A DNA stretch of 64,000 nucleotides from IMG/VR virus record IMGVR_UViG_3300018422_000001, positions 1 through 64,000 of that record, one strand, 5' to 3'. The stretch comes from a virus. The translations under genes were made by a program, and so were the position numbers. This document shows positions 3,709 to 33,532 of the stretch, piece by piece. The notes below the pieces were generated by a model, which searched no databases, was not told the origin of the DNA, and worked only from the letters and a program-made list of their open reading frames with translations. Each line of letters begins with the position of its first letter. Within the stretch, counting starts at the first letter, position 1.

Positions 3709-3714
3709 CTACAC

Positions 3715-3933: not shown

Positions 3934-3944
3934 GCGAGGCCCGC

Positions 3945-3967: not shown

Positions 3968-3979
3968 TGCCGCAAGTTA

Positions 3980-4018
3980 TGAAATACCGCTAGCGCTTTT
4001 CAAGACTGGAGCTAGATT
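3980..4018 (+). promoter_or_regulatory. Box A promoter/operator copy 8
   Basis: TGAAATACCGCTAGCGCTTTTCAAGACTGGAGCTAGATT. 6 nt before ATG 4025. Confidence 0.6.
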
Positions 4019-4024
4019 GAAGTT

Positions 4025-4243: not shown

Positions 4244-4322
4244 GACCGCCCGCCCGCGCCGGGGAACGACCGGCGCCCGGCGCCCGCCGACAGGGCCCGC
4301 GGGAACAATCGACCGGCGCCGT

Positions 4323-4361
4323 TGAAATACCGCTAGCGCTTTTCAAGGCCGGAGCTAGATT
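4323..4361 (+). promoter_or_regulatory. Box A promoter/operator copy 9
   Basis: TGAAATACCGCTAGCGCTTTTCAAGGCCGGAGCTAGATT. 6 nt before ATG 4368. Confidence 0.6.
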
Positions 4362-4367
4362 GAAGTT

Positions 4368-4670
4368 ATGGAAACGAACCGCAACGAGACGCAGACGCTC
4401 TTCGCCCTCATGACCGACCGCGACGAAGCTTGGCGCTGCAGCAAGTGCTCGGGCAAGGGTGTGATTGACGCCTACCACTGGAACAAGGACGGGCTCTGCT
4501 TCAAGTGCGAGGGCACCGGCGCCGCTCAGGATGCGCGCTCGCTCAAGACGGTCGAGCGGCTCGACGCGAAGATCGCCAAGCTCAGCGCCTCGATTCAGGC
4601 GCGCGCGCCGAAAGCCGAGGAACTGCCGGATCTCGCGGACATCGACCTCTCGGCTCTGATGAGCGGCTGA
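4368..4670 (+). CDS. small protein with two DnaJ-type CxxCxGxG zinc-finger motifs (100 aa)
   Basis: CSKCSGKG and CFKCEGTG motifs. Leaderless-type start after Box A. Confidence 0.65.
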   Translation: METNRNETQTLFALMTDRDEAWRCSKCSGKGVIDAYHWNKDGLCFKCEGTGAAQDARSLKTVERLDAKIAKLSASIQARAPKAEELPDLADIDLSALMSG

Positions 4671-4680
4671 AACCTACAGG

Positions 4681-4694
4681 GCCCCGATCGGGGC
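4681..4694 (+). terminator. short GC hairpin (palindrome GCCCCGATCGGGGC)
   Basis: Perfect 14-nt palindrome 11 nt after the stop of 4368..4670. Confidence 0.4.
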
Positions 4695-4730
4695 TCTCCG
4701 AGCCCGCGCCGAACAATCGACCGGCGCCGT

Positions 4731-4769
4731 TGAAATACCGCTAGCGCTTTTCAAGACTCGAGCTAGATT
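4731..4769 (+). promoter_or_regulatory. Box A promoter/operator copy 10
   Basis: TGAAATACCGCTAGCGCTTTTCAAGACTCGAGCTAGATT. 6 nt before GTG 4776. Confidence 0.6.
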
Positions 4770-4775
4770 CAAGAC

Positions 4776-4946
4776 GTGGACAGCAACAACCTGACGTTCT
4801 GGGGATACTCGAAGATCAACGGCCGCACTTTCGGCGCCTGGCTCCGCGCGGCGGGCCGCCATGATGGCAACGTAACCGCTGTAGGTTACATGGACTTGCA
4901 AGCGGCTTGGCGCCGGGGCGAAAAGCCCGCGGATCACACCTACTGA
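4776..4946 (+). CDS. small early protein (56 aa, VDSNNLTFWGYSKING...), below ORF-track cutoff
   Basis: Hand translation GTG 4776 to TGA 4944..4946. Followed by a terminator-like hairpin. Confidence 0.5.
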   Translation: MDSNNLTFWGYSKINGRTFGAWLRAAGRHDGNVTAVGYMDLQAAWRRGEKPADHTY

Positions 4947-4955
4947 AGACCTGCA

Positions 4956-4984
4956 GGGGCCGCCTAGAGCGGCCCTTGTTCGTT
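4956..4984 (+). terminator. rho-independent-like terminator (GGGCCGC-CTAGA-GCGGCCC then TTGTTCGTT)
   Basis: 7-bp GC stem, 5-nt loop, T-rich tail read directly. Confidence 0.6.
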
Positions 4985-5207
4985 CCCCGACCGAGAGGCG
5001 CCGCCGCCCGCGCGCGCCGCCTGCGACCGTCAGAGCCCCGCTCGAGACCGCTCGAGACCGCCGCTCGAGACCGCCGACCGCGCCTGCGACCGTCAGAGCC
5101 CCGCGCCGAGACCGCCTGCGACCGCCGCCCGCGCCGGGGCAAGCTCGAGACCGCCGACCGAGACCGCGACGGATCGGCGCTCGAGAATCTCGAGCGGCTG
5201 CCGCAAG
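4985..5207. repeat. GC-rich degenerate short-repeat spacer
   Basis: CGCCTGCGACCGTCAGAGCCCCGC occurs twice. CCGCTCGAGACCG units. Ends in hairpin CGCTCGAG-AAT-CTCGAGCG at 5178..5196. Confidence 0.8.
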
Positions 5208-5210
5208 TTA

Positions 5211-5249
5211 TGAAATACCGCTAGCGTCTTTCAACGCGCGAGCTAAGCT
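5211..5249 (+). promoter_or_regulatory. Box A promoter/operator copy 11
   Basis: TGAAATACCGCTAGCGTCTTTCAACGCGCGAGCTAAGCT. 6 nt before ATG 5256. Confidence 0.55.
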
Positions 5250-5255
5250 CTGGTT

Positions 5256-5432
5256 ATGACAACGACGAGCAACGCGAAGACCTGGATTGTGGCCGAGTAT
5301 CGCAGCGACGACTTTTACGGCCAGACCGAGAACCTCACCTTGCAGGCAGCACACGCGCTAGCCGAAAAGATTCGGGAGAGCGGGCACGAAGCCTCGGTGG
5401 TCGACAACCTCGCTGACCTCGAATCTTTCTGA
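5256..5432 (+). CDS. small early protein (58 aa, MTTTSNAKTWIVAEYRSDDFYGQ...), below ORF-track cutoff
   Basis: Hand translation ATG 5256 to TGA 5430..5432. Hairpin follows. Confidence 0.55.
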   Translation: MTTTSNAKTWIVAEYRSDDFYGQTENLTLQAAHALAEKIRESGHEASVVDNLADLESF

Positions 5433-5446
5433 GAAGAGCCCCGACC

Positions 5447-5471
5447 GGGCCCCGGGGAACAGCCGGGGCCC
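5447..5471 (+). terminator. GC hairpin GGGCCCCGG-GGAACAG-CCGGGGCCC
   Basis: Perfect 9-bp stem read directly, 15 nt after the stop codon. Confidence 0.5.
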
Positions 5472-5624
5472 GCGCCGCTCGAGACCGCCGCTCGAGACCG
5501 CCGAGACCGCCGCTCGAGACCGCCGCTCGAGACCGCCGACCCGCGCCGACCCGCGCCGACCGCGCCGACCGCGCCGACCGCGCCGACCGCGCCGACCCGC
5601 GACGACCCGCGCCGAGACCGCCGA
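5472..5624. repeat. two adjoining microsatellite-like arrays (13-bp CCGCTCGAGACCG x4; 9/10-bp CCGAC(C)CGCG x8)
   Basis: Read directly from 5472..5624. Confidence 0.9.
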
Positions 5625-5663
5625 CGAAATACCGCTAGCGTTTTTCAAGACTCGAGCTAGGAT
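5625..5663 (+). promoter_or_regulatory. Box A promoter/operator copy 12
   Basis: CGAAATACCGCTAGCGTTTTTCAAGACTCGAGCTAGGAT. 6 nt before ATG 5670. Confidence 0.6.
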
Positions 5664-11604: not shown

Positions 11605-11846
11605 TCGACGTCAAACTCAGCGACGAAGACATTGAACGGATCGCTCAACGCGTGACCGATCTGCTCGCTCGAAAGCTACTGGGAAGACTGGCGAAATTCG
11701 CAGGCGGGCTAGTCGCCAATGATGCAGAGGGCGCCCCTATCGGGGACACCTCCCGTGTTGCCAAAGTCGAGCGGCGTGCCAATGTCCAGCCGACCGCGCA
11801 GGATTTTGCTGACGTTGCGGCGCGGCGAGCAAGAAGAGGTTGTTGA
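11601..11846 (+). CDS. small hypothetical protein (81 aa)
   Basis: GTGA-coupled start. ORF track. Confidence 0.45.
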   Translation: MIDVKLSDEDIERIAQRVTDLLARKLLGRLAKFAGGLVANDAEGAPIGDTSRVAKVERRANVQPTAQDFADVAARRARRGC

Positions 11847-11848
11847 CG

Positions 11849-13162
11849 ATGCCACGAAAACAAACGGGTTCAGTCGAGAAAAGAGGCGGTCGGTTTCGCG
11901 CACGACTTGGCCGAGAAGTGCTCGGCACATTCGATACAGAAGACGAAGCGGATCGGAAGATCATCGCGGCGCAAGTGATGAACAAGGGCGTTACGCCCGA
12001 CATGTTTTGCATCAAGGGCGAGAAGTACATGAAGAACGAAGAGCTGCTCGCGCGTACGCGTCGAGGCAACTCGAAGATGTGGCAGAAGGAGGTCTCGCTT
12101 TGGGCTCGGCACATTCGCACGAGCAAGATTTATCGAATGAACGTGAAGAGCATTCAACGCGAGCACGTTCAAGATCTGCTCGAGAAGGTCGCGCAAACAC
12201 GCGCCGTGCGAATCGAGCCGAAGGTTGGTGGTGGATTCGATATCGTCGAAACGGATCGATTCTGCGGTGAGCGCACGATCAAACGTGTTCGCAGTCGTCT
12301 GTCGCACTTCTTCGATCGATGCCGTGGCTTGAAGAGCAACCCAGCGCTGCGTTGTCCGATTCCCAACACGACACAGATCAAGATTCGTCACGACTCGGAT
12401 CAGAAGCCTCACTTGCATGCAGACGAGGTCGTTCGTTTGTTCGATCTGCTCGAGATGACAGACGAGCATCGTGCTGTGTACGCGTTCGGGATTTACGCCG
12501 GGCTTCGTATCGACGAGATCGTTGGTCTGCGATGGGAGAACATTCTTCGGCTCGACAGCGACGATCCCGAGCTTGCGATCCAGTTCAGCTACGACGCGCC
12601 GACCAAAACGCAAAGCTCGCAGAGAGGAATCCCGATGCTGCCGCAGCTCGTGAAAGAGCTTCGGGCGTATCGTGCCTCGTTGCCCTCTACGCCGATCGCT
12701 GGCGTTGTGTTCCCTGGCAAGGATGGCTCGGTGAGGTCGATCGGTTACTCGGCTCGTTGGGCTGACAAGCGGTACAGGAACGAAAACGGAGAGTGGCGAG
12801 TGCGGGTCGGTTACCGAACGCTCGCTGGCATTCGCAAGCACATCTTGTTTCGGCATGTCCGGCATACGTGCGCGACTCATTTGCTCAAGGGCACATTCAC
12901 GCACGGGCACGAATGGCCGATCGAGAAAGTCTCGCAGTTGCTCGGGCACGAAGACGTGTCGACGACGATCGAACACTACGCCTCGAGAGAGGTCGACCGA
13001 CTGCACTCGGAGGTCGCGAAGGGCAAGCGCAAAGCCGAGCGAGAGCAGAGGCGCGTAGCCTCGGCTCGGTTGCTCGAGGATGGCTCAGACGAGCCCCGCA
13101 AGCCGAGGTCGATCTCTGGCAAGAAACCGGGCCGGAAAAACCCCACGAAAAACCCCAGGTGA
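11849..13162 (+). CDS. int: tyrosine recombinase / phage integrase
   Basis: GLRIDEIVGLRWENI, HVRHTCATHLLKG and LLGHEDVSTTIEHYA (R, HxxR and Y motifs). GAGG 9 nt before ATG 11849. Confidence 0.9.
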   Translation: MPRKQTGSVEKRGGRFRARLGREVLGTFDTEDEADRKIIAAQVMNKGVTPDMFCIKGEKYMKNEELLARTRRGNSKMWQKEVSLWARHIRTSKIYRMNVKSIQREHVQDLLEKVAQTRAVRIEPKVGGGFDIVETDRFCGERTIKRVRSRLSHFFDRCRGLKSNPALRCPIPNTTQIKIRHDSDQKPHLHADEVVRLFDLLEMTDEHRAVYAFGIYAGLRIDEIVGLRWENILRLDSDDPELAIQFSYDAPTKTQSSQRGIPMLPQLVKELRAYRASLPSTPIAGVVFPGKDGSVRSIGYSARWADKRYRNENGEWRVRVGYRTLAGIRKHILFRHVRHTCATHLLKGTFTHGHEWPIEKVSQLLGHEDVSTTIEHYASREVDRLHSEVAKGKRKAEREQRRVASARLLEDGSDEPRKPRSISGKKPGRKNPTKNPR

Positions 13163-15443: not shown

Positions 15444-15761
15444 TCACGACGCGTCGGCTCGTTGCTCGAAGAGATTGCGCGCGATCACCTCGTCGTCGTC
15501 GGTAAGCGAAACGTACTCTTCGCCAAGCGCTCGCACGACGAAGAATGTTCCGACGAGCCCGGCTCGATTCGGCTGCAGCCCGATCAACCGACCCTCTTCG
15601 TTGCAGATCACGAAGAGCCAATGACGCGCGAGAACCGGAACATGCACTTGCTCGATGTAGCCGCCGACGATCCGCTGCATGTCTTTCAACTCGTTGTCGA
15701 TCTCGATCATCTCGCCGGGCTTGCCGGGCTCGTAGACGAGAATCCTGATCCGTTCGCTCAC
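15444..15761 (-). CDS. DUF3846-like protein
   Basis: ORF track. VYEPGKPGEMIEIDNELKDMQRIVGGYIE...ICNEEGRLIGLQPNR pattern, recalled from DUF3846 family members. Confidence 0.5.
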   Translation of the reverse strand: MSERIRILVYEPGKPGEMIEIDNELKDMQRIVGGYIEQVHVPVLARHWLFVICNEEGRLIGLQPNRAGLVGTFFVVRALGEEYVSLTDDDEVIARNLFEQRADAS

Positions 15762-17140: not shown

Positions 17141-17179
17141 ACACTAGCTCCGGTCTTGAAAAGCGCTAGCGGTATTTCT
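17141..17179 (-). promoter_or_regulatory. Box A promoter/operator copy 14 (minus strand; only copy with a ~45-nt leader)
   Basis: Reverse complement AGAAATACCGCTAGCGCTTTTCAAGACCGGAGCTAGTGT. Confidence 0.55.
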
Positions 17180-17436
17180 CAGGCGCCCGCCGTCCACACG
17201 TGCACTCGCCAATCGTTGCCGTCGACGTCGGTACCCCAATACTCATGATGAGGGCGCTCGGCATCGTGCACGGCGACGTCACCTTCGCACTCGACGAAGA
17301 GAGCGGCGCATACAACGCTCGGATCGAGGCGGCCCGCCTGAGCCATGTCGACGGCATCGATCCAGACAGTCTGTCCGCGCGAGATCGATTCGTTGATTGA
17401 GTGGTCGATGAGCTGAGAGAGGTTATTCGTGGACAT
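17179..17436 (-). CDS. small early protein (85 aa)
   Basis: ORF track. GGAG before ATG 17436. Confidence 0.55.
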   Translation of the reverse strand: MSTNNLSQLIDHSINESISRGQTVWIDAVDMAQAGRLDPSVVCAALFVECEGDVAVHDAERPHHEYWGTDVDGNDWRVHVWTAGA

Positions 17437-17480
17437 GGTTTACTCCAATCGGTGAGGTCGGTTCGGTTGCCGGGATCTGG

Positions 17481-17717
17481 TTACGCCTGCTCGCGAGAGG
17501 CGAGCCATGCTCGACCGGTCTCGGTTGCGCGCGCGTGATTGGCGTTTCGAGTCGCGAAGCCGATGCTCACGAGGTGCTCGATCGCGTTCCACCATCGCGC
17601 GGCATCGGGGCCCGCCATGCGGTAGCCGCTCGGTGTCAGCGATCCGTCCGCTGTAGCCGCCTCGGTGAGCACGACGACGCGGTAGGCGGTCAACTTGATT
17701 GGTTTCTGCGATGCCAT
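17481..17717 (-). CDS. small early protein (78 aa)
   Basis: ORF track. ATG 17717 lies 6 nt after the TAGAGT of minus-strand Box A. Confidence 0.6.
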   Translation of the reverse strand: MASQKPIKLTAYRVVVLTEAATADGSLTPSGYRMAGPDAARWWNAIEHLVSIGFATRNANHARATETGRAWLASREQA

Positions 17718-17723
17718 GATTTG

Positions 17724-17762
17724 ACTCTAGCTCCGGTCTTGAAAAGCGCTAGTGGTATTTCA
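17724..17762 (-). promoter_or_regulatory. Box A promoter/operator copy 15 (minus strand)
   Basis: Reverse complement TGAAATACCACTAGCGCTTTTCAAGACCGGAGCTAGAGT. Confidence 0.6.
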
Positions 17763-17805
17763 CCGAGGCCGAGGGAATCGGATCCGGATCCGCGTGCTCA
17801 TGCCA

Positions 17806-17988
17806 TCAGACCTTGACCGTACACGCGACTGGATACTGCCCGGCAGTCTGCGACATCCAGCGACCCGCGCTGACTTCGTACACGTGCAACCCGCGAAGCA
17901 CGTAGGTGTGTGGCGGCTCGCCCGGGCCGACCGAGAACGTGTTGCGCACTTCCATCCACTGCCCGTTGACTCTGATTTGCTTGCTCAC
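17806..17988 (-). CDS. small early protein (60 aa from GTG 17988)
   Basis: GTG 7 nt after the TAGGCT of Box A copy 16. C-terminal part of ORF 17806..18222. Confidence 0.5.
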   Translation of the reverse strand: MSKQIRVNGQWMEVRNTFSVGPGEPPHTYVLRGLHVYEVSAGRWMSQTAGQYPVACTVKV

Positions 17989-17995
17989 AACAGAC

Positions 17996-18034
17996 AGCCT
18001 AGCTCGGTCGCTGAAAGATGCAAGCGGTATTTCA
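17996..18034 (-). promoter_or_regulatory. Box A promoter/operator copy 16 (minus strand, diverged)
   Basis: Reverse complement TGAAATACCGCTTGCATCTTTCAGCGACCGAGCTAGGCT. Confidence 0.5.
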
Positions 18035-18220
18035 ACCGCTCTTGAGTGTTGCCTTGTACACGGCGACAGTGACGTAGCCGTCACGGTGGCTCTTTGTGCG
18101 CACGACGCGAGAGCCGTCCGGCTGATAGGCCGTTTCAAAGCAAACTTTCGGCCCGGGCGCGCACACGATGCGCACTGCCGTCGACTTCGCTTCTGCCCAC
18201 TTGAGATCGATGTTCTCCAC
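18032..18220 (-). CDS. small early protein (62 aa)
   Basis: ORF track. GTG 18220 lies 23 nt downstream of the Box B TAGTGT. Confidence 0.55.
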   Translation of the reverse strand: MENIDLKWAEAKSTAVRIVCAPGPKVCFETAYQPDGSRVVRTKSHRDGYVTVAVYKATLKSG

Positions 18221-18236
18221 ACCTCAACCGTAGCTT

Positions 18237-18253
18237 ATCCGGGACACTAGCGC
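18237..18253 (-). promoter_or_regulatory. Box B motif copy 2
   Basis: ATCCGGGACACTAGCGC. Confidence 0.55.
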
Positions 18254-18289
18254 AAGAGGCTCGGCTCGAGAATCGACTGCGCGCCGGGC

Positions 18290-18337
18290 GCAGACGGCAG
18301 ACGGCAGACGGCAGACGGCAGACGGCAGACGGCAGAC
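18290..18337. repeat. 7-bp microsatellite (GCAGACG) x6.9
   Basis: Read directly. Lies between two Box B copies. Confidence 0.95.
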
Positions 18338-18380
18338 TGGATCGCGTATCCGCGGAAGACTAGATAAGCGCCGGGCCGGT

Positions 18381-18397
18381 ATCCGGGACACTAGCGC
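18381..18397 (-). promoter_or_regulatory. Box B motif copy 3
   Basis: ATCCGGGACACTAGCGC. Confidence 0.5.
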
Positions 18398-18425
18398 CGG
18401 TTTCCCTAGGCGCTGTCGCAAGTTA

Positions 18426-18464
18426 TGAAATACCGCAAGCGCTTTTCAGAGGCGGAGCTAGTCT
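18426..18464 (+). promoter_or_regulatory. Box A promoter/operator copy 17
   Basis: TGAAATACCGCAAGCGCTTTTCAGAGGCGGAGCTAGTCT. 7 nt before GTG 18472. Confidence 0.55.
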
Positions 18465-18471
18465 GTGGTTT

Positions 18472-19407
18472 GTGAGCACCACGATGAAAACGCTTCGGTT
18501 CGGGATTGAGATTGAAACGGTCGGCGCGTCGCGCCCGACGATCGCTGCGGCGATTGCCACGGTACTCGGCGGCAACTACAACGGCGGCGAGACGGCGACC
18601 GACTCGCTCGGTCGCACATGGAAGGTTGTGCCCGATGGCAGCCTCGCAGGCGGATACGACCGTAGCGGCGAGATTGTCTCGCCGATCCTCACCTACGCCG
18701 ACCTCGACACGCTGCAGGCGATTGTGCGTGCAGTGCGTGCGGCGGGCGCGCGGGTCGATAGCTCATGCGGCATTCACGTACACATCGACAGCTCGACGTT
18801 TACGGCAAAGAGCGTCGTCAACCTCGTCAAGACAGTGCACAAGCAAGAGCGCTTGATCGAGCACGCCTTGCGCATCGCGCCGAGTCGACTCGAGCGCTAC
18901 TGCCGCCCGATCGATGCCGATTTCATGGCTCGCCTCGAGTCGACCACGGTTCGCACGATGGCCGATGTGTCGAATGCTTGGTACGGCTACAGCAACTCTT
19001 CGCCGAACCGCTACGACAGCTCGCGTTACCATGGCCTCAACCTCAACTCTCACTTTTTTCGCGGAACCGTTGAGTTTCGCTACTTCTCGGGCTCGTTGCA
19101 TGCTGGCGAGGTCAAGGCGTATGTGCAGTTTGCGCTCGCACTCGCGGCCCGCTCGCTCACGATGAAGGCTGCTTCGAGCAAGCGCCGCGAATTCAACGTC
19201 GATACCGCGAAATACGACTTTCGCGTACTCATGATCAAGCTCGGCCTGATCGGCGACGAGTTCAAAACGTGCCGCCTCCATCTCTCGAAGCATCTCGAGG
19301 GTACGAGCGCGACGAAGCGAGCGGTCGTCGCGACGGCGGCGGTTGCCGCAACGGAGACCGCTGCAGCCGTCGAGACGGCCGACAACGGGGCAGCCGATGG
19401 CGAGTAA
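18472..19407 (+). CDS. amidoligase-family enzyme (Amidoligase_2 / glutamine-synthetase-like COOH-NH2 ligase)
   Basis: [28 protein letters not shown] and [11 protein letters not shown] motifs typical of the putative amidoligase family. Confidence 0.75.
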
Positions 19408-19897
19408 GCCCCGCGGCAAGCGGCCGACAGCGGCCCGCACAAGCGCTCGAGAGGCCCTCTACTTCGCATACGGCTCGAACCTGAGCCCGGCGCAGATGCA
19501 GGCGCGATGTCCAGGCGCCTTGATCGAGGCCCGCGCGACTCTCAGCGACTACGCGATCGCATTCGGCGGATTCAGTGCGAGATGGGGCGGCGGTGTCGCA
19601 AGTCTCGTACGAGTGCGAGGCGCCTGCACAGAGGGCCTGATCTACCGAATCGACAGAGACCTCATGAGTCGACTGGATCAGTACGAGGGTGTTCCCCGCG
19701 CATACGTGCGCATCGCGAAAGAGGTGCTTGACGAGCATGGACGGCGGCGTCGAGCGCAAGTGTATCTGCAGACGGACGCGTCGTTCGAATCCGAGAACCT
19801 GCCCTCTGCGAGGTACCTCGCTCAGATCCTCGCCGCCTACGATCGCCTGGGTTTCGACACCGATCCGCTACGTGCCGCAGTTGGAGGTTTTCAGTGA
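19397..19897 (+). CDS. gamma-glutamylcyclotransferase-like (AIG2/GGCT fold) protein 1
   Basis: [19 protein letters not shown] near the N-terminus, YEGVP motif. Start ATG 19397 overlaps the amidoligase end by 11 nt. Confidence 0.65.
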
Positions 19898-20259
19898 CCA
19901 TCGTGTTTGTGTACGGCTCATTACTTGCAGGGCAGGGCAACAACCGGTTGCTTCGTACGGCCCGATTCGTCGGGCCCGGGCGGACGGCACCCGAGTACAC
20001 GATGCTTTCGCTAGGCGGGTTTCCAGGCGTCGTGAGCGGCGGCAGTACCCCGATCGAGGGCGAGTGCTACGAGGTCGACGGCCCGACGCTCGAGGCACTA
20101 GACAGGCTCGAGGGGCACCCAAGCTTCTACCGTCGCACGGCGATTGTGCTAGAGGACAAGTTGTCGGTTGAATTCTACTTGCTCAATACCGAGCACGTGC
20201 GAGAGCTGCCGATCGTGGTTTCGGGATCCTGGTTGAAGTACCGGCAGGGGCAAAGATGA
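19894..20259 (+). CDS. gamma-glutamylcyclotransferase-like (AIG2/GGACT) protein 2
   Basis: [50 protein letters not shown]-coupled. Confidence 0.7.
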   Translation: MTIVFVYGSLLAGQGNNRLLRTARFVGPGRTAPEYTMLSLGGFPGVVSGGSTPIEGECYEVDGPTLEALDRLEGHPSFYRRTAIVLEDKLSVEFYLLNTEHVRELPIVVSGSWLKYRQGQR

Positions 20260-20501
20260 GAATCGAGATTCGAGATGGTCGCGTGTTGCAGGGGACGGCG
20301 TTGCAGATCGTAAAGGCGATGCAGGACCTCGCATTCGGCGTGCAAGATTTCACGGTCGCGCAATACGTCGCTTGGGTCGTCGACAACTCGCTACGCATCG
20401 AAGAGCTAGTGCTCGACGTCAAGGGCGAGACCGACGACGAGCTTGCGCAGTCGCTCGTTGCCGAGATGCTCGGCAAGAATCTCGCGCGAAAGCTCGACTG
20501 A
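20256..20501 (+). CDS. small hypothetical protein (81 aa)
   Basis: ORF track. ATGA-coupled to GGCT-2. Confidence 0.5.
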   Translation: MRIEIRDGRVLQGTALQIVKAMQDLAFGVQDFTVAQYVAWVVDNSLRIEELVLDVKGETDDELAQSLVAEMLGKNLARKLD

Positions 20502-20541
20502 GACATGGCAACGAAGCCCGCCTCGATCGAATACGGTTGGG

Positions 20542-21027
20542 GTGCGGCGGCGAAACACAGTCGATGATTTTTGGCGGAACGTCGATCGCTCAGGCGGGCC
20601 GGATGCTTGTTGGCCATGGAAGGGTGCGCCCGACTCCGATGGCTACGGGCGAATGATGGTCGATGGGAAGCAATACAAGGCGCATCGGTTCGCATACGGC
20701 GTGACAAATGGATTCGTGCCGCCGAGTGTTCTGATCCGTCACTCGTGCGACAACCCGCCGTGTTGCAACCCGGGTCACTTGTTGACAGGCTCGCCTGCAG
20801 ACAACATGCGAGATCGCGACGAGCGCGGACGGCATGTGTCTCGCCCCGGAGAGACTAACGGATCGTCCAAGTTGCTCGATGCGCAAGCCGCAGAAATACG
20901 CGCGCGGTTTTTGCGCGGCGAGTCGGCTGCCTCAATCGCGAGAGACTTCCCGCAAGTCACCTACTGTCAGACGAATCGAATCGCGCGCCGCTACAGCAGA
21001 ACGAAGGACAATCAGCGTGGCCAGTAA
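20542..21027 (+). CDS. HNH homing-type endonuclease
   Basis: FWRNVDRSGGPDACWPWKG...YGRMMVDGKQYKAHRFAY...IRHSCDNPPCCNPGHL. GTG 20542 chosen as the first start after the upstream stop. Confidence 0.7.
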   Translation: MRRRNTVDDFWRNVDRSGGPDACWPWKGAPDSDGYGRMMVDGKQYKAHRFAYGVTNGFVPPSVLIRHSCDNPPCCNPGHLLTGSPADNMRDRDERGRHVSRPGETNGSSKLLDAQAAEIRARFLRGESAASIARDFPQVTYCQTNRIARRYSRTKDNQRGQ

Positions 21028-21913
21028 ACAGTTTCGACCGATGCTTGCAGCAACTTTGGAGTCTGTGACTCAGCTGCGATTTCCAGTGCTCGCCTCGCCA
21101 AAACTGGACGGAATTCGTACCGTGATTCGCGACGGCAAGGCTCTGAGCCGGAGCCTCAAGCCGATCCCGAACGAAGCGGTCCGCAAGTTTCTCGAGGGCC
21201 GCCCGGAACTCGAGGGTCTCGACGGTGAGTTGATGGTGCATGGCGCAACGTTTCAAGCGACGACGAGTGCGTTTATGAGCCGCTCGGGCGCGTTGCCTGC
21301 AGGCTGGTATTTCGGCGTGTTCGATGCTCTGCCGATCGTCGAGCGTGAGCCGTACACGCAACGGTTGATCCGCGCGACCGCCGCCGTCGCGAAAGCCGGG
21401 CCTCACATCGTGCTTGTCGAGCAGACCGAGGTTTGCAGCGCGGATCAGCTCGACACCTACGAAGCGAAAGCGCTAGAGCTTGGCTTCGAGGGCGTCATGA
21501 TTCGTCGCGCTGCAGCCTTCTACAAGCACGGGCGCTCGACCGCGACCGACGGCGCCTTGCTCAAGCTCAAGCGCTTTGCCGACGGCGAAGCGACCGTGAT
21601 TGGCTTCGCGGAGCGCATGCACAACGGCAACATTGCGACGACGAGCGCGACCGGTCGCACGCAACGATCGTCTGCGAAAGCAGGCAAGTCGCAGACGGGC
21701 AGTCTCGGCGCGTTGCTCGTGCGTGAGTGCAAGACCGGGATCGAGTTTGAGGTCGGCACGGGTTTCACCGAGGCGCAGCGACAGACGTTCTGGCGTACGC
21801 AAGCCGAGTTGCTCGGTCGCACGATCAAGTACAAGCACTTCGTGATCGGCGCGATGGTCAAGCCGCGGTTCCCGACCTTCATCGGGTTTCGCGCCGCAGA
21901 GGACATGAGCTGA
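21017..21913 (+). CDS. ATP-dependent DNA ligase
   Basis: Nucleotidyl-transferase motif I SPKLDGIRTV. GFEGVMIRR and LLKLK motifs. Start GTG 21017 (or ATG 21041) overlaps the HNH end. Confidence 0.75.
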   Translation: MASKQFRPMLAATLESVTQLRFPVLASPKLDGIRTVIRDGKALSRSLKPIPNEAVRKFLEGRPELEGLDGELMVHGATFQATTSAFMSRSGALPAGWYFGVFDALPIVEREPYTQRLIRATAAVAKAGPHIVLVEQTEVCSADQLDTYEAKALELGFEGVMIRRAAAFYKHGRSTATDGALLKLKRFADGEATVIGFAERMHNGNIATTSATGRTQRSSAKAGKSQTGSLGALLVRECKTGIEFEVGTGFTEAQRQTFWRTQAELLGRTIKYKHFVIGAMVKPRFPTFIGFRAAEDMS

Positions 21914-22023
21914 GAGAGGGCCTCTCGAGCCCCGGCGCCGCCCGCGCCGCTCGAGGGTGCTACGTCGATGAGGTCGCTCGAGGCCCGCACCGCTCAGAGG
22001 CCCGAGAGCGCTCCGGGCTCGGT

Positions 22024-22063
22024 TGAAATACCGCTTGCGTGTTTCAAAGGCTCGCGCTAGAGT
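22024..22063 (+). promoter_or_regulatory. Box A promoter/operator copy 18 (40 nt)
   Basis: TGAAATACCGCTTGCGTGTTTCAAAGGCTCGCGCTAGAGT. 6 nt before GTG 22070. Confidence 0.55.
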
Positions 22064-22069
22064 CTTGGT

Positions 22070-22288
22070 GTGAGCAAGATCATTTTCATCCGGCACTCAT
22101 CAGGCGCAACGCATGCACTCGGCGGCAAGCGACTCGCGAAACTGCTCTCCGAGCTGAAAGCCGGGCGCGGGCAAGTCGAGATGTGCCGCTTGCAGGAAAA
22201 CGGGTACATGGAGACGATGTCGGGTCACTGCATCAGCGATTTGACGTACGAGCTTGCTCTGCGCCTCGCATCCGGCGCAGCCGAGTGA
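22070..22288 (+). CDS. small early protein (72 aa)
   Basis: ORF track. Leaderless-type GTG start. Confidence 0.55.
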   Translation: MSKIIFIRHSSGATHALGGKRLAKLLSELKAGRGQVEMCRLQENGYMETMSGHCISDLTYELALRLASGAAE

Positions 22289-22301
22289 TCCCGGGCGGTT
22301 G

Positions 22302-22340
22302 TGAAATACCGCTTGCGTGTTTCAAAGCGTGAGCTAGGCT
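22302..22340 (+). promoter_or_regulatory. Box A promoter/operator copy 19
   Basis: TGAAATACCGCTTGCGTGTTTCAAAGCGTGAGCTAGGCT. 6 nt before GTG 22347. Confidence 0.55.
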
Positions 22341-22346
22341 CAAGAC

Positions 22347-22442
22347 GTGGACATCAGAGAGCGCGGCACCGGTTGGATTCTTTCACTAGTCGACGTCGTT
22401 TTCGTCGCGATTTTTCGGGTGCCTCTGACCCGCCCGTTTTGA
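22347..22442 (+). CDS. possible 31-aa leaderless micro-ORF (VDIRERGTGWILSLVDVVFVAIFRVPLTRPF)
   Basis: Hand translation. Hydrophobic core. Very short, so uncertain. Confidence 0.3.
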   Translation: MDIRERGTGWILSLVDVVFVAIFRVPLTRPF

Positions 22443-22449
22443 GGCAAGC

Positions 22450-22725
22450 ATGACACCCATCGAGTTTTGGCCCATCGTGCGACGCAAGGGCCGCGCGGGA
22501 TACAGCGCTGCGCACTTCGCGGCGGTTAGCCCGCAAGCCGACAACCCTCTGCTCGTTGCCGAGCGACTCGCGGCCCGCGTGTCGGGCTCGAGTCGTGAGC
22601 GGAACTGGAGCGAGCTTTGCGAGTCTTGGGATTTTCTGATCGCGACGCTCGAGAGGCATTCGGCCGAGCCGCAGATCGCCAAGTTTCTCAAAGCGGCCGT
22701 GAAAGCGAAGAAGAGCGCGACCTGA
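22450..22725 (+). CDS. small hypothetical protein (91 aa)
   Basis: ORF track. Confidence 0.5.
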   Translation: MTPIEFWPIVRRKGRAGYSAAHFAAVSPQADNPLLVAERLAARVSGSSRERNWSELCESWDFLIATLERHSAEPQIAKFLKAAVKAKKSAT

Positions 22726-22758
22726 GCCGGGGGAAACCCGAGAGGTCCCGAGTGGTTA

Positions 22759-22797
22759 TGAAATACCGCTAGCGCTTTTCAAGGCTTGAGCTAGAGT
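22759..22797 (+). promoter_or_regulatory. Box A promoter/operator copy 20
   Basis: TGAAATACCGCTAGCGCTTTTCAAGGCTTGAGCTAGAGT. Confidence 0.55.
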
Positions 22798-29273: not shown

Positions 29274-31274
29274 ATGGCCCCTCGAGACGGCGAGATCAGC
29301 GCGGAGCAGCGCATCGAGAGTGTTGCCGGTACGCGCAACACGGTGGTCAAGGCGTACGAGATCGGGCGCGACTACGCCGGGCTCGAGAAGGCCGAGCAAC
29401 AGAGCGAGGCATCCGACGACACGATCATGAGCATCTCGACGGCGTTCGCTCGAGACCAGATCGAGCCGCCGTACAGCCCCGATCACCTCTGCAAGTTGTT
29501 CGAGCACTCGGCATCACTACGGCAGAACGTCGACGCGTACATGACGAACATCGACGGGTTTGGACACACGTTCGACCCGGTGATCCAACTCAAAGAAGCC
29601 GCGGGCCGCGACATGGTGCGCGACGCGATCTTCATCGAGCGATACGAGGCCGCGCACAACCCACCGGCTCGGAAACCGGGCGAGCCCGTGCAGCCGGCTC
29701 CGGAAGTACTGATGCCGACCGATGCCGACATCGAGGCTCGGATCGATCAACTGCGAGCACAGATGCGAATGGAGCGCGCGCGAGTCGAGAGCTTCTTCTC
29801 GTACTGCGTCGCAGAAGAGAGTTTCACGAGCCTCCGGCGCCGCACTCGCCAAGACATCGAGGTCACCGGGAACGGCTATTGGGAAGTGATCCGCAACGGC
29901 GTCGGCGAGATCTCGCAGTTCGTTTACATCCCGTCGCGGTCGATGCGCGTGACCTCGAAAAAGCCGCACTCGGTCGAGGTGCCGCAGCTCGTGCGATTCG
30001 GTTCGCTTGCTCATCGCAAAGAAACGTTTCGCCGCAAGTTTCGCCGCTACCTGCAGACGGGCGGTGATCATCCGATCTGGTTCAAAGAGTTCGGCGACCC
30101 TCAAATACTCAGCTCGAGGACGGGCAAGTCATACGACACGCTCGAGCTTCTGCAGGCTACAGAACACGGCGTCCCGGAAGCGACCGAGGTGTTCCACTTC
30201 AAGATTCACGCGCTCACGACGAGCGCATACGGCGTGCCGAGATGGATCGGGAACCTGCTCTCGGTGCTCGGCTCGCGAGCCGCCGAAGAAGTGAACCTCG
30301 CTTACTTCGACAACAAAGCGATCCCGCCGATGGCGATCCTCGTGAGCGGCGGGCGACTCGGCGAAGAGTCGGTCAAGCGCATCGAGGATTTCGTCGAGGT
30401 CCAGATCAAGGGCCGCAAAAACTTTCACAAGATCCTCGTGATCGAAGCGGAGACGACCGCGGGCGCGATCGGTCTCGGCAACGAGAACGCCGGGCACATG
30501 CGCGTCGAGATCAAGACGCTGACCGACGCGCAACTCAAGGACGGCCTGTTCCTCGCTTACGACAGCGCGAACATGGACAAGGTCGGTATGGGCTTCCGGC
30601 TGCCGCGGTTGCTGCGCGGCGACATTCGCGACTTCAATCGCGCGAGTGCCGAAGCCGCTCTCGACTTCGCTGAAAGCCAAGTGTTCGGGCCCGAGCGCAA
30701 CGACTTCGATTTCGCGATGAATCGCCACGTGCTCCCAGCGCTCGGGATCCACCACTGGCAATTCAAAAGCAACGGCCCGCGCCTCTCGGACTCGCAGAGT
30801 TGGGGCGACATGATCGTCAAGCTCACGGTCGCTGGCATCCTGACGCCAGAGGATGCGCGCGCGCTTACCGGGACGAAGGTTCTCTCGCAAGAGCTACCCC
30901 TCATCTCGGCCGACTGGATCCGTCAACCGTTGCCTCTGACGATCGCAGGTGTGCAGCTCGACACGTCGCTCGACAACAACATCCCGCTAGCCGCGGCAGA
31001 GGGCGCAGGCGGCGCTGGGTTGCCCGATACGACCACGGGACCGACGCCAGCACCGGGCCTCGTCTCGGCTGCCAAGGGGCGGTTGCTAGCGCGCGCCAAA
31101 GACCTGATCCGGTTGCGCGATGCGTTCCGCAAACAAGAGACCGCTCAGGCGGTGGCCACACACAAGAAGCTGCAGGCTGCGGCCGATGCTGAGACCGACG
31201 AAGACGAGATCGTCATACGCATGACGGCCGAAGAGCTGGCGACGAATTTCGGGATCACGCGCAAAGAGACATGA
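29274..31274 (+). CDS. portal protein
   Basis: 666 aa ORF directly upstream of and ATGA-coupled to a MuF-like gene. Size, position and acidic C-terminus are typical of portals. Confidence 0.75.
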   Translation: MAPRDGEISAEQRIESVAGTRNTVVKAYEIGRDYAGLEKAEQQSEASDDTIMSISTAFARDQIEPPYSPDHLCKLFEHSASLRQNVDAYMTNIDGFGHTFDPVIQLKEAAGRDMVRDAIFIERYEAAHNPPARKPGEPVQPAPEVLMPTDADIEARIDQLRAQMRMERARVESFFSYCVAEESFTSLRRRTRQDIEVTGNGYWEVIRNGVGEISQFVYIPSRSMRVTSKKPHSVEVPQLVRFGSLAHRKETFRRKFRRYLQTGGDHPIWFKEFGDPQILSSRTGKSYDTLELLQATEHGVPEATEVFHFKIHALTTSAYGVPRWIGNLLSVLGSRAAEEVNLAYFDNKAIPPMAILVSGGRLGEESVKRIEDFVEVQIKGRKNFHKILVIEAETTAGAIGLGNENAGHMRVEIKTLTDAQLKDGLFLAYDSANMDKVGMGFRLPRLLRGDIRDFNRASAEAALDFAESQVFGPERNDFDFAMNRHVLPALGIHHWQFKSNGPRLSDSQSWGDMIVKLTVAGILTPEDARALTGTKVLSQELPLISADWIRQPLPLTIAGVQLDTSLDNNIPLAAAEGAGGAGLPDTTTGPTPAPGLVSAAKGRLLARAKDLIRLRDAFRKQETAQAVATHKKLQAAADAETDEDEIVIRMTAEELATNFGITRKET

Positions 31275-33532
31275 ACATCTGGTCGCGCGGCGTGGCGGCA
31301 GCCGAGGATCTCGCGACCGAGCTGCTCGGCGTGAGCGTGCACAAGGCGGTCGACCCGCTCGACCCGGACGGCTTCGTCGTGATCGGCGATCGGGTCGCGG
31401 CTGCCCTACGCAAAGCGGTCCGGGGCGGGGAAGCCGACGTGGTTCGAGGCGCGCTCGATGCGCTCAACATCGATTGGAACAAGGCTTCTCCGAACGCTGT
31501 CGACAAGGCGATCGATGCCGCGAAAGCTTCGATCAAAGCGCACTACGAAAAGTTCGTGCTGCCGAAGGTCAACGACACGCTCGAGTTGCAGGGCCCGATC
31601 CTGATGAAGGGCGTCAAGAGGGCCGTGATCGCCCGCGAGAAGATCGAGATCGCCCCGATGCTCTCGCTGCGCGACGAGGGCGCCGAGACCGCGATCCGAC
31701 GGCAGCACGTCAACTTCATTCGTGACAGCGCGGGCAAGCGGCTCGAGAGGATGAGTGAAGAAGCCCGCGGCATCGTCGCTCGAGGCTTTTCGGAGGGCCT
31801 CGGTCGCAACGTCATCGGGCGAGACCTCAAAGACCATTTCACCGACCGCATCGTGCGGCCCGACTCGTATTGGAACGTCGTCGCGAGCGCATACATCGGC
31901 CGAGCGCGATCGACGTCGCAGGTCTACGCGTACGAGGATGCAGGGATCCAGACGTTCGAGGTCGTCGCGGTGCTCGACGAGGTGACGACCGATCAGTGCC
32001 GTTTCATGGACGGGCAGGTGTTCACGATCCGATCGGCTCGACAGATCCTCGATGTGGTCGAAGACATCGAGGATCCCGAGGACGTCGTGCTCGCGAATCC
32101 GTGGATCCGAAAGGGTCGCGATCCGTCGGGCGGTATGCGGCTCTTCGTGCCGACGAAGGGCGGGGGAACAGAAACGCTGGCGAAGATCGATCGCAGCGGT
32201 CTCGGCAAGCTCGACGACAAGGGCTCGTTCTCGGGCGGCAAGAGTGCTGCCGGTCTGAGCAAGCTCGGTGTCTCGATGCCGCCCTATCACGGGCTCTGCC
32301 GCACGACGATCGTTGCTGGCGCAGAGATGTCGGAAGAGAAGCCGGTGCGCGCGCCGAGAGCGAAGCCTGCGCCGAAGCCCGAGCCGAAGCCCGAGCCGAA
32401 GCCCGAGCCGAAACCAGAGACACCGTTCAGCCCGCTCGAGGTTGAACCGATCCCATCGTATCCGACTCAGCTGCGTCTACCGATGAGACTAACGCCGCCT
32501 GCGAAGCCGGTGATTGTTCCGCCTGTCGTCGCAGAACCGAAACCGAAAAAGCCTCGAGCGCCTCGCAAGAAGCCTGCAGCCGACGCGCCGGTTGCTGCGA
32601 AGCCGGCTCCGGTGACAGCGTTGCCTGCTGAGTCAGCTTGGATGCAGGAGCCGACACTCGATGTCGTGTTCGATGACGACGCGCCTGGCGGTGGTGTGAA
32701 CGGCGCGCGGCTACTCTCGGTGAGAGACGCAAAAGCAACCGGATATGCGCATGCTCTACAAGGTGTTTGGAAGCCGATATCGACAGAGAGCTATGGTCTG
32801 CGCACGGGCATTGAGGCGGGCTCGTACTATCAACGCGAAGCTGCAATGTTCGAGTTGGATTCACTTCTTGAAGGCAAGCCCGTTGTGCCGCCCACCATCG
32901 TGCGAGAGCACAAGGGCGAAAAGGGCAGCTTTCAACAGTTCGTCAGTAACGCTACGTCTACAGTAAAGATCCGCGCCTCTGAGCTGCAACAGGCGAGCGA
33001 GCGTCATCTTCAGACAGAGCCCTCGTTGCGGCGATTGTTTCTGCTCGACGTGATCGCAGCGAACGACGATCGACACGTTGGCAACACGCTCTGGACCGGG
33101 AGAGGCAACAACATGAAAGCGGTCGCAATCGACAACGGGCTGACGTTCCCAAAGAGGCCGTGTCGATTCCTCTTTGCCGTGCCGGATCCGAAGGTCGCAG
33201 ATGCGCTAATGAAGTTCGACGCGACGAGTCTCGAGCAACTCAAGTCATTGAAGCTCGAGGACGTCGCGGCGATTCTGCACAAGCAACCCGACATTTTGGA
33301 AGAGCAGATCGCGGCAACTCTCGGCCGGATCAAGTCACTGCAGAACGATCACGCTCAATTCGAAAAGTTTATCCCGAAACCGGGCACGTACGGGGCTAAC
33401 AGAGTCGACGAACGCCAAACCGAAATTCATCGCTGGCTCGGCAAGCATACGACCGAGCGAGTCATGGACGGTGAGATCACCGAAGACGAGAAGCTCGAGA
33501 TCTACAAGCTCGCGAAACGGGCGATCGACTAG
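31271..33532 (+). CDS. MuF/SPP1 gp7-like head morphogenesis protein fused to a PI3K/PI4K-like (HipA-related) kinase domain
   Basis: MuF motif AVLDEVTTDQCRFMDGQVF. (KPEP)n and Pro-rich linker. C-terminal LFLLDVIAANDDRHVGN...AVAIDNGLTFP (DRHxxN catalytic loop and IDxG). Confidence 0.7.
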   Translation: MNIWSRGVAAAEDLATELLGVSVHKAVDPLDPDGFVVIGDRVAAALRKAVRGGEADVVRGALDALNIDWNKASPNAVDKAIDAAKASIKAHYEKFVLPKVNDTLELQGPILMKGVKRAVIAREKIEIAPMLSLRDEGAETAIRRQHVNFIRDSAGKRLERMSEEARGIVARGFSEGLGRNVIGRDLKDHFTDRIVRPDSYWNVVASAYIGRARSTSQVYAYEDAGIQTFEVVAVLDEVTTDQCRFMDGQVFTIRSARQILDVVEDIEDPEDVVLANPWIRKGRDPSGGMRLFVPTKGGGTETLAKIDRSGLGKLDDKGSFSGGKSAAGLSKLGVSMPPYHGLCRTTIVAGAEMSEEKPVRAPRAKPAPKPEPKPEPKPEPKPETPFSPLEVEPIPSYPTQLRLPMRLTPPAKPVIVPPVVAEPKPKKPRAPRKKPAADAPVAAKPAPVTALPAESAWMQEPTLDVVFDDDAPGGGVNGARLLSVRDAKATGYAHALQGVWKPISTESYGLRTGIEAGSYYQREAAMFELDSLLEGKPVVPPTIVREHKGEKGSFQQFVSNATSTVKIRASELQQASERHLQTEPSLRRLFLLDVIAANDDRHVGNTLWTGRGNNMKAVAIDNGLTFPKRPCRFLFAVPDPKVADALMKFDATSLEQLKSLKLEDVAAILHKQPDILEEQIAATLGRIKSLQNDHAQFEKFIPKPGTYGANRVDERQTEIHRWLGKHTTERVMDGEITEDEKLEIYKLAKRAID

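Follow-up and report, generated by a model that had tools for sequence, protein, structure and literature searches.

A mobile four-gene amidoligase-cyclotransferase module that may attach and release gamma-glutamyl groups

An association between amidoligases and gamma-glutamyl cyclotransferases (GGCT) in phages has been known since the comparative genomics of Iyer et al. 2009 (Mol Biosyst 5:1636, PMC3268129), to which later papers attribute it. The cassette in question occurs in podophages (LUZ24, PaP3, tf, UFV-P2, phiEco32, 7-11, PA11/TC6, RIO-1, PSA-HP1 and CW02), and a role for it in 'putative peptidoglycan modification' or the recycling of host material is traced to predictions made by Iyer et al. 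2009 and by Hardies et al. 2013. None of the later papers that cite these two works for peptidoglycan modification reports an experiment. In addition to an amidoligase of family PF12224 and a GGACT-type cyclotransferase, the cassette has a class II glutamine amidotransferase (GAT-II), a RimK-like ATP-grasp enzyme and a second COOH-NH2 ligase (PF14395); LUZ24 encodes both a GAT-II protein (gp19) and a GGCT (gp22). Here we describe a related module of four genes, encoding an amidoligase, two cyclotransferases (GGCT1 and GGCT2) and an 81-aa protein, in a 64,000-nt stretch of viral DNA with 62.5% G+C (IMG/VR record IMGVR_UViG_3300018422_000001, positions 1 to 64,000). We call the whole of this stretch the window, and all coordinates refer to it (Table 1). 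A sequence-only reading of the window had pointed to surveys of phage neighbourhoods that combine such a ligase with a GGCT or an amidohydrolase and define no substrate, and this is correct.

The window module has in common with the podophage cassette a PF12224 amidoligase and a GGACT-type cyclotransferase, both lying among non-structural genes. GGCT2 is 38% identical to LUZ24 gp22 (E 3e-16); the amidoligase of LUZ24 resembles the window ligase at the level of motifs only (E 0.03). The podophage cassette is often interrupted by an HNH gene, for example in UFV-P2, and an HNH gene likewise adjoins the module in the window. Unlike the cassette, however, the module has an additional GGCT-type cyclotransferase and the 81-aa protein, to which LUZ24 gp20 is unrelated. 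A Pfam scan of 46 open reading frames (ORFs) of the window, which include all of its longer probable genes from a screen of GC content at third codon positions, found no GAT-II, ATP-grasp or PF14395 gene (the scan covered the window, and 46 kb of the 110-kb contig lie outside it). Nor was any of the three found in the neighbourhoods of the module in Myxococcus xanthus or in L002, a related phage locus whose four module proteins are about 84-91% identical to those of the window. Moreover, the window phage is temperate, whereas the podophages with the cassette are lytic. These comparisons mark the module as a variant of the cassette described in 2009, distinct from it and reduced in gene content.

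The same ligase subfamily (41-50% identity) forms part of a gene pair in Firmicutes, carried by Heliusvirales-like gut phages, prophages of Veillonellaceae and Lachnospiraceae, C. clostridioforme LM41 phi13 and conjugative elements of Lachnospiraceae. There, the ligase is directly followed by a GGCT1-type gene whose product is 26-39% identical to that of the window, and the two are annotated as phrog_2443 and phrog_2520, as in the window. In contrast to the window, the Firmicutes loci have neither a second cyclotransferase of the GGACT type nor the 81-aa protein.

Similar combinations are found in the gamma-glutamyl cycle and in amine pathways (GCL or the GCS2 protein YbdK with GGCT; PuuA, GlnA3; GGACT). 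The ligases of these pathways have a fold of the glutamine synthetase (GS) and GCS2 type, as is predicted for the window ligase, and the window cyclotransferases keep the GGCT/GGACT motifs and the catalytic Glu of the pathway enzymes. By analogy, the shared logic would be that a gamma-glutamyl amide is made at the expense of ATP and then resolved into 5-oxoproline and an amine. Unlike the gamma-glutamyl cycle, the module has no linked gene for a glutathione synthetase, a gamma-glutamyl transpeptidase or a 5-oxoprolinase. In butirosin biosynthesis, the ligase BtrJ adds a protective gamma-glutamyl group and the GGCT-fold enzyme BtrG removes it, and in ergothioneine biosynthesis a GCS2-type ligase (EgtA) is combined with a GAT-II-type amidohydrolase (EgtC). 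In both cases, as is predicted for the window, an ATP-dependent ligase is paired with a glutamyl remover of the GGCT or GAT fold, which matches the alternation of GGCT and GAT partners among phage amidoligases described below. However, BtrJ is an ATP-grasp enzyme that acts on an acyl carrier protein, and no carrier protein, decarboxylase or tailoring enzyme is linked to the window module. The Pup system (PafA, Dop and Pup) shares the carboxylate-amine ligase fold with the window ligase (Foldseek E 8e-4 for Dop), and both it and the window operon include a small protein. That of the window is predicted to be folded, with a mean predicted local distance difference test score (pLDDT) of 88.7, and has no GGQ or GGE; the partners in the Pup system are the proteasome and Mpa, rather than cyclotransferases.

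All four ORFs of the module were found where the sequence-only reading had placed them, with all the motifs that it had quoted present in the translations (including FAYGSNL and VFVYGSLL). Its assignment of one amidoligase and two GGCT/AIG2-like proteins agrees with both Pfam and PHROGs, neither of which assigned any of the proteins to an unrelated family. The operon structure that it described, with a coupled 81-aa ORF and an upstream Box A, was also recovered. Successive genes overlap by 11, 4 and 4 nt: the ATG of GGCT1 at 19397 lies 11 nt ahead of the ligase stop, GGCT1 and GGCT2 meet in a GTGA at 19894-19897, and GGCT2 and the 81-aa gene meet in an ATGA at 20256-20259. Such overlaps are the usual signature of translational coupling, and indicate that the four genes are coupled. 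No intrinsic terminator or sigma-70 promoter was found on the + strand within the operon. The ligase starts at ATG 18484 in public gene calls and in its homologues, as against GTG 18472. Compared with L002, the ratio of nonsynonymous to synonymous substitution rates (dN/dS) is 0.28 for the ligase, 0.17 for GGCT1, 0.19 for GGCT2 and 0.105 for the 81-aa gene, values that point to purifying selection on all four genes, with the 81-aa gene the most constrained.

The ligase matches Amidoligase_2 (PF12224) over almost the entire profile (positions 2-244 of 245; E 8.9e-56, 189.9 bits, cut-off 22) and phrog_2443, 'amidoligase enzyme' (E 1.8e-77). Its translation contains the motifs FGIEIE, EIVSP, GIHVHID and VEFRYF, and residues E9, E11, E63, H98, H100, R193, E197 and R199 are invariant among 48 homologues. 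A search of the PDB by sequence gave no match, and the Pfam scan gave no match of the ligase to the GCS2, Gln-synt_C or Pup-ligase (PafA/Dop) families. An AlphaFold2 (AF2) model of the protein (pLDDT 88.5, with about 30 C-terminal residues predicted to be disordered) did, however, place it in the GS/GCS2-type fold, distantly: the top Foldseek matches in the PDB were YbdK (1r8g/1tt4), glutamine synthetases and Dop, all with probability 1.0 and template-modelling (TM) scores of 0.4-0.48. Within the carboxylate-amine ligase superfamily, the ligase forms a remote branch that is structurally uncharacterised. The family is large, with 2386 homologues of Amidoligase_2 at E<=1e-10 in one word-indexed search. 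To our knowledge, no structure of any member has been solved. In the literature up to 2026, we found no experimental substrate for a phage amidoligase or GGCT, and no characterised member of Amidoligase_2.

The two cyclotransferases both match phrog_2520, 'gamma-glutamyl cyclotransferase', and differ in their closest relatives. GGCT1 matches PF06094 (E 3e-13, 50.8 bits) and AIG2_2 (PF13772; E 1.5e-8, 35.4 bits), and its nearest solved relative is human GGCT (2pn7/2i5t, E 7e-13), with which its YFAYGSNL and LDQYEGV (the LD..EG glutamate) align. It has a basic N-terminal extension of about 20 residues that is absent from the M. xanthus orthologue. GGCT2 matches GGACT (PF06094; E 2.4e-24, 86.6 bits) and AH_C, and is nearest to the structures of E. 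coli YtfP (1xhs, E 4.5e-12) and human GGACT (3jub, E 3e-9), with both of which its VYGSLL and LDRLEGH align. Across both paralogues in three genomes, Y25, G26, L29, D94 and E97 are invariant; we take the catalytic Glu to be the one assigned from structures as E98 in GGCT and E82 in GGACT. As GGCT1 and GGCT2 are only 27% identical and have different nearest relatives, the module joins two distinct cyclotransferase subfamilies, one of the GGCT type and one of the YtfP/GGACT type, a split that the sequence-only reading had overlooked. The animal enzymes differ in preference: GGCT prefers gamma-glutamyl-alpha-amino acids, and GGACT prefers gamma-glutamyl-amines.

The sequence-only reading had also overlooked that the 81-aa protein is a conserved, and sometimes fused, partner of the cyclotransferases. 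It is 59% identical to its M. xanthus copy, with 44 invariant columns in the alignment, and an exhaustive profile search found 329 representatives of the family at E<=1e-3. These data indicate that the ORF is a genuine gene. In five of the 329 representatives (P0165, P0178, P0181, P0191 and P0287), a GGACT/GGCT domain is fused in frame to the 81-aa domain. We conclude from the sequences that the 81-aa protein belongs to an undescribed family and is a conserved partner of the cyclotransferases. Its AF2 model consists of a beta-hairpin, three helices and a C-terminal strand. Foldseek found no fold match for this model in the PDB (best E 1.5); in BFVD, two uncharacterised viral proteins have the same fold (TM 0.73-0.78). 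No family database gave a match (Table 1). PurS, at E 0.061 and 13.5 bits against a cut-off of 39, was dismissed. A tag like Pup or LysW was ruled out because the C-terminus is variable (…RKLD, …ATKG, …TRRM), with no GGQ or GGE, and no Lys is invariant. The small proteins encoded beside amidoligases in LUZ24 and in phages of Porphyromonas and Bacillus proved to be unrelated to the 81-aa protein.

A 64% identical copy of the 81-aa protein also occurs without a ligase or cyclotransferases, at L173 3315-3557 and on the JGI 3300056388 contig (P0140). It follows two WYL/HTH_PafC regulators and precedes DUF6361, PLDc_2 and DEAD-helicase genes, a context with a defence-like look.

How widely is the module distributed? 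The four-gene order of the window is also present in M. xanthus DK1622 (CP000113, ~2.15 Mb), in metagenome-assembled genomes (MAGs) of Myxococcota and in dozens of metagenome contigs. As an independent sample, 80 metagenome loci were found via the 81-aa protein. Counting only loci with enough upstream sequence, the 81-aa gene is immediately preceded by GGCT2 in 66 of 68 loci, with GGCT1 upstream in 51 of 53 and the ligase in 22 of 25. In M. xanthus (L004-L007, M. xanthus DK1622 and relatives, CP000113 ~2.145-2.158 Mb), the module comes after genes for DUF6900 and DUF7768 and is immediately followed by DUF2169 and Tox-PAAR-like genes, in what looks like a prophage-like region of the chromosome.

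A ligase-based sample of 167 loci was dereplicated at 90% identity to 45 lineages. A GGCT gene was found within 3 kb downstream of the ligase in 39 of these, and started within 400 nt in 35. A search with hidden Markov models added four more lineages, three with an upstream GGCT-like ORF (L096, L016 and L010) and one with a GGCT further downstream (L013). The gene neighbourhoods of the amidoligase family therefore bear out the pairing read from this one locus, as a GGCT is linked in about 43 of the 45 lineages. In the Bacillus phage 022DV001, the ligase and GGCT are 1.1 kb apart. A glutamine-amidotransferase-type protein takes the place of GGCT as the partner of the ligase in the Arthrobacter phage Ottawa and in OM43 phages. 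These neighbourhoods show that the deeper conserved core consists of the ligase and a GGCT1-type gene, and that this core is phylogenetically broad.

In the Firmicutes prophages (Veillonellaceae, Lachnospiraceae and other Clostridia), the pair stands directly before terS/terL and after ParB-methyltransferase genes. In 23-26 Lachnospiraceae loci (including L130 and L149), it stands between a VirB4/TraG-like ATPase and an NlpC/P60 hydrolase in the transfer cluster of a conjugative element, so the module is not restricted to phages. In 106 of the Firmicutes loci examined, the gene directly upstream of the ligase encodes a divergent amidoligase paralogue (L058 4036-4887, L001 5110-5874), which matches phrog_2443 (E 5e-30 to 4e-49) and has an hhalign probability of 99.1%, with no Pfam match. 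It has lost the ExE, HxH and ExR motifs that are conserved in the ligase, and is therefore probably a pseudoenzyme partner. The window has no equivalent of it.

What drives expression of the module? The Box A motif, GAAATNCCNSNNGCNNNYTTNAG, has 18 matches in the window compared to 0.02 expected for its degenerate form. There are 11 copies on the + strand at 0.6-5.6 kb, 3 on the - strand at 17.1-18.0 kb and 4 on the + strand at 18.4-22.8 kb, each oriented in the same way as the gene downstream of it. All are confined to the non-structural part of the window, with 0 copies in the structural half. Aligning all 18 copies revealed a larger conserved element of ~45 nt, GAAATACCGCTAGCGCTTTTCAA-N5-GAGCTAGAGTC, with Box A as its 5' part; an ATG or GTG start follows 6-8 nt on. 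The TAGAGT of this element resembles a -10 hexamer, starts of this type lack a Shine-Dalgarno sequence, and a GC-rich hairpin, ccgctcgagaatctcgagcgg, precedes many of the copies. No sigma-70-type -35/-10 pair was found in 17900-22400. The element looks like a phage-specific class of promoter or operator for non-structural genes. As the -10-like TAGAGT lies 6-7 nt ahead of the start codon, the mRNAs are probably leaderless or nearly so.

The Box A at 18427 is kept at the same position upstream of the orthologous ligase in L002, where the next copy on the + strand comes after the DNA ligase gene. In the window, the next copies past the DNA ligase gene are at 22025, 22303 and 22760. These positions indicate that the transcription unit runs from Box A through the ligase, GGCT1, GGCT2, the 81-aa gene and (in the window) the HNH gene to the DNA ligase gene. 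The Box A element is absent from the M. xanthus module locus. The Box A of the sequence-only reading is thus borne out, by copy number and by conservation in L002. Its description as an early-type promoter is plausible, in that the copies occur only in the non-structural part of the window, but the phage is also a temperate one with an integrase.

Other repeats lie close to the module. Just upstream of Box A, the divergent intergenic region holds a perfect heptamer array, GCAGACG x 6.9, at 18290-18337, flanked by two identical 18-nt direct repeats, TATCCGGGACACTAGCGC, at 18236-18253 and 18380-18397. The array and its flanking repeats may be iterons, an origin or a regulator-binding array. The three Box A copies on the - strand drive a small cluster on that strand that includes a DUF3846 gene (15444-15761), also present in L002.

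What might the module do? We tentatively propose, giving it a little less than an even chance, that it is an accessory unit of mobile elements which, in the cytoplasm of the host, attaches gamma-glutamyl groups and releases them again (an 'attach and release' cycle). The Amidoligase_2 enzyme would first convert a carboxylate to an acyl phosphate at the expense of ATP; analogy with glutamine synthetase, GCS2/YbdK, PuuA and PafA makes the gamma-carboxylate of glutamate the most likely one. It would then join this carboxylate to an amine acceptor to give a gamma-glutamyl amide. The cyclotransferases, as expected from their families, would then attack the amide through the free alpha-amino group of the glutamyl moiety, releasing 5-oxoproline and restoring the amine. 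Since one is of the GGCT type and the other of the GGACT type, two kinds of gamma-glutamyl linkage would probably be handled, one to an alpha-amino group and one to an alkyl or epsilon-amino group; a diamine or a diamino acid would bear both. The fusions and the gene adjacency suggest that the 81-aa protein would work in physical association with the cyclotransferases, in the role of an adaptor or a regulatory subunit. The four genes would be transcribed, with the HNH and DNA ligase genes, from the phage-specific Box A promoter. An ATP-dependent ligase would imply a cytoplasmic site of action. As acceptor, our leading guess is not DNA but a small metabolite with an amine group or a precursor peptide of the cell envelope.

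The make-and-remove logic, which the sequence-only reading had put forward, fits the families, and is strengthened by the near-universal linkage of ligase and GGCT, by the intact catalytic motifs and by the replacement of GGCT with a GAT-type protein in some phages. The GAT-II family also cleaves gamma-glutamyl amides, as in glutaminase domains and EgtC. As both chemistries cleave gamma-glutamyl amides, the alternation of the two partners supports a make-and-cleave cycle on such a bond.

Several observations weigh against the attach-and-release cycle. The use of glutamate by the ligase is an analogy from a distant fold match to YbdK and GS, with TM scores of 0.4-0.48 and 12-14% identity. If both kinds of enzyme acted on one bond with no step between them, the result would be a futile cycle that converts Glu and ATP to 5-oxoproline; the model therefore misses a piece, be it a host step, separation in time or another substrate for one of the enzymes. 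The parts of the module do not always travel together, either. Three loci (L184, L239 and L251) carry GGCT1, GGCT2 and the small gene with no ligase detected within 4 kb upstream, and in Porphyromonas phages and in L139 the ligase is found without any GGCT. Lastly, the lone P0140 copy, 64% identical and in an unrelated context, suggests that the 81-aa protein may have a function of its own.

One particular version of the attach-and-release cycle would be the modification of peptidoglycan or wall peptides, the role credited to Iyer et al. 2009 and to Hardies et al. 2013. Here, the ligase would extend a stem-peptide precursor by an amino acid or an amide, and wall peptides with gamma-glutamyl linkages would be processed by the cyclotransferases; the changed envelope would block superinfection or prepare for lysis or transfer. 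The literature consistently gives this role to the larger LUZ24/phiEco32/PSA-HP1 cassette, although in the papers found it is a prediction only, even for these type examples, and the classical GAT-II, ATP-grasp and COOH-NH2 ligase genes are absent among the window ORFs scanned. Peptidoglycan does contain a gamma-D-Glu-diamino-acid bond, and the NlpC/P60 context of the 23-26 Lachnospiraceae loci gives modest support, this family containing gamma-D-glutamyl-diamino-acid endopeptidases. However, GGCT-type enzymes, as known for the family, need a free alpha-amino group on the glutamyl, which L-Ala blocks in intact stem peptides. Most of the Firmicutes prophage pairs adjoin DNA methyltransferases and terminase, not lysis genes, and the envelopes of the hosts are very different (Myxococcota, Negativicutes, Clostridia, Bacillus and Arthrobacter). 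We consider this version unlikely. Distinctly unlikely, in our view, is a self-contained writer-eraser system for the gamma-glutamylation of a macromolecular amine, such as a protein lysine or the diamino acid of an envelope precursor, in which the 81-aa domain would target or regulate the eraser. In its protein form, which we regard as quite improbable, the ligase would gamma-glutamylate lysine or another residue, and the GGACT-type enzyme, guided by the small adaptor, would remove the mark. Foldseek ties the ligase fold to Dop, the depupylase paralogue of PafA, and PafA makes gamma-glutamyl-lysine isopeptide bonds; the absence of a PafA/Dop match in Pfam and the small protein, which is not Pup-like in its variable C-terminus and lack of an invariant lysine, speak against this parallel. 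Similarly, human GGACT, which GGCT2 resembles, cleaves epsilon-(gamma-glutamyl)-lysine, but from family knowledge it works on the free isodipeptide and not on proteins. A small domain fused to a cyclotransferase could recognise a target, yet there is no conserved candidate target gene in the neighbourhood.

The net reaction itself suggests another role. If both enzyme types share a bond, glutamate is converted to 5-oxoproline at the cost of ATP, and this may be a deliberate shunt that manipulates host metabolism. A precedent is the gamma-glutamyl cycle, in which GGCT turns gamma-Glu-Cys into 5-oxoproline, and such a drain, or the destruction of glutathione or gamma-glutamyl-polyamines, could act as a toxin in takeover, exclusion or abortive infection. 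It would suit an accessory unit carried by prophages and by integrative and conjugative elements, and the M. xanthus copy adjoins PAAR-toxin genes. Against this, glutathione synthesis is not known in many of the hosts, Clostridia and Negativicutes among them, and the genes are also conserved in lytic phages, where self-poisoning makes little sense. Nor is there a match to known defence-system models: no PADLOC 2.0 model matched any of the four module proteins at E<=0.01, and the counter-defence role raised in the sequence-only reading has no direct support. We give a drain or toxin a small chance. Hypermodification of DNA or nucleotides we hold to be very improbable. In this reading, the ligase would add a group to a modified base that bears an amine or a carboxyl, and the resulting adduct would be trimmed by the cyclotransferases. 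Lee et al. 2021 found that thymidine-hypermodification clusters of viral contigs are accompanied by amidoligase and amidotransferase domains, the window module is co-transcribed with DNA ligase and HNH genes, and the module of Firmicutes prophages comes after DNA methyltransferases. However, the linkage to the DNA ligase and HNH genes is not conserved, the phage is temperate with an integrase, and the module is also found on conjugative elements and on the M. xanthus chromosome. Furthermore, the 46 window ORFs gave no Pfam match to a dUMP/dCMP hydroxymethylase, 5-HMUDK kinase, aGPT-Pplase, TET/JBP, pyridoxal-phosphate (PLP) or radical-SAM enzyme; with no enzyme of the thymidine-hypermodification type among them, the DNA-modification role suggested from the sequence alone is not upheld.

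Amidoligase_2 is thus a large family borne by mobile elements. Its near-obligate pairing with cleavers of gamma-glutamyl amides was observed in 2009, and later genome papers have carried this observation on as 'peptidoglycan modification'. The four-gene version is its simplest form, with one ligase, two classes of cyclotransferase, one small partner and no other tailoring enzymes. As it is present in the genetically tractable M. xanthus DK1622, the target of the phage ligases is directly testable. If this target were an envelope precursor, a polyamine or a protein, the cycle would represent a new strategy by which phages and conjugative elements reprogramme host cells. If the writer-eraser alternative were true, it would be a new reversible modification system in conflicts between bacteria and mobile genetic elements, across phyla.

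The sequence-only reading had also remarked on the contiguity of the operon with an HNH endonuclease and a DNA ligase (Table 1). Both genes are present as it described. The start of the HNH gene is uncertain, with in-frame candidates at 20443, 20458 and 20542, and in L002/L008 no HNH gene separates the 81-aa gene from that of the DNA ligase (L002 8015-8232). Its absence from L002 indicates that it is a recent mobile insertion of the homing type, outside the module. The DNA ligase gene, which is the last before the Box A at 22025, is present in L002 but absent from M. xanthus and other Myxococcota loci, so its linkage to the module is limited to this phage lineage and its close relatives. Since neither linkage is conserved, contiguity says nothing about function, and we rejected a functional significance for it as lineage-specific.

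Table 1. Positions of the module, its promoter-like element and other features in the window
Feature	Position	Strand	Details
Amidoligase gene	18472-19407	+	311 aa from GTG 18472; 307 aa from ATG 18484
Cyclotransferase 1 (GGCT1)	19397-19897	+	166 aa; PF06094 and PF13772
Cyclotransferase 2 (GGCT2)	19894-20259	+	121 aa; PF06094 and AH_C
81-aa protein gene	20256-20501	+	no match in Pfam, PHROG, NCBIfam, PADLOC or PDB
Module Box A	18427-18471	+	GAAATACCGCAAGCGCTTTTCAG (18427-18449), 5 nt, GAGCTAGTCT (-10-like TAGNNT), ~7 nt, GTG 18472
Box A copy ranges	646-5648 (+), 17156-18033 (-), 18427-22782 (+)		motif matches
HNH endonuclease	20542-21027	+	HNH_3 E 8.7e-6; phrog_1872 E 7e-35
ATP-dependent DNA ligase	21017-21913	+	DNA_ligase_A_M, DNA_ligase_OB_2; phrog_114
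Tyrosine integrase	11840-13162		window ORF, Pfam

As well as a tyrosine integrase, the window encodes an HTH protein, a DNA methylase and a myovirus-type structural block, with portal, XkdF-type protease, capsid and sheath genes followed by those for tape measure, tube, baseplate hub and baseplate J. The integrase and the full structural block indicate that the genome is that of a temperate tailed phage or prophage. A collection of 50,697 phage records contained no near-identical DNA, and the phage is therefore not a described one. The closest named relatives of its amidoligase are Myxococcus proteins (63-68% identity), some of them called 'VrlE', and the closest MAGs are of Myxococcales, Polyangiaceae and Kofleriaceae. 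The host is therefore probably a member of the Myxococcota.

Two large proteins of the structural half have further domains. A 753-aa protein encoded just after the portal gene (31271-33532, +) has a weak PI3_PI4_kinase-like match (E 4e-5, 24 bits, below the 27.1-bit cut-off), and may be a head-associated protein with a kinase-like domain. A 769-aa protein of the tail region (55024-57333, +) contains Sortilin-Vps10/BNR (beta-propeller) repeats, and is probably a tail fibre component that binds a receptor or glycan.

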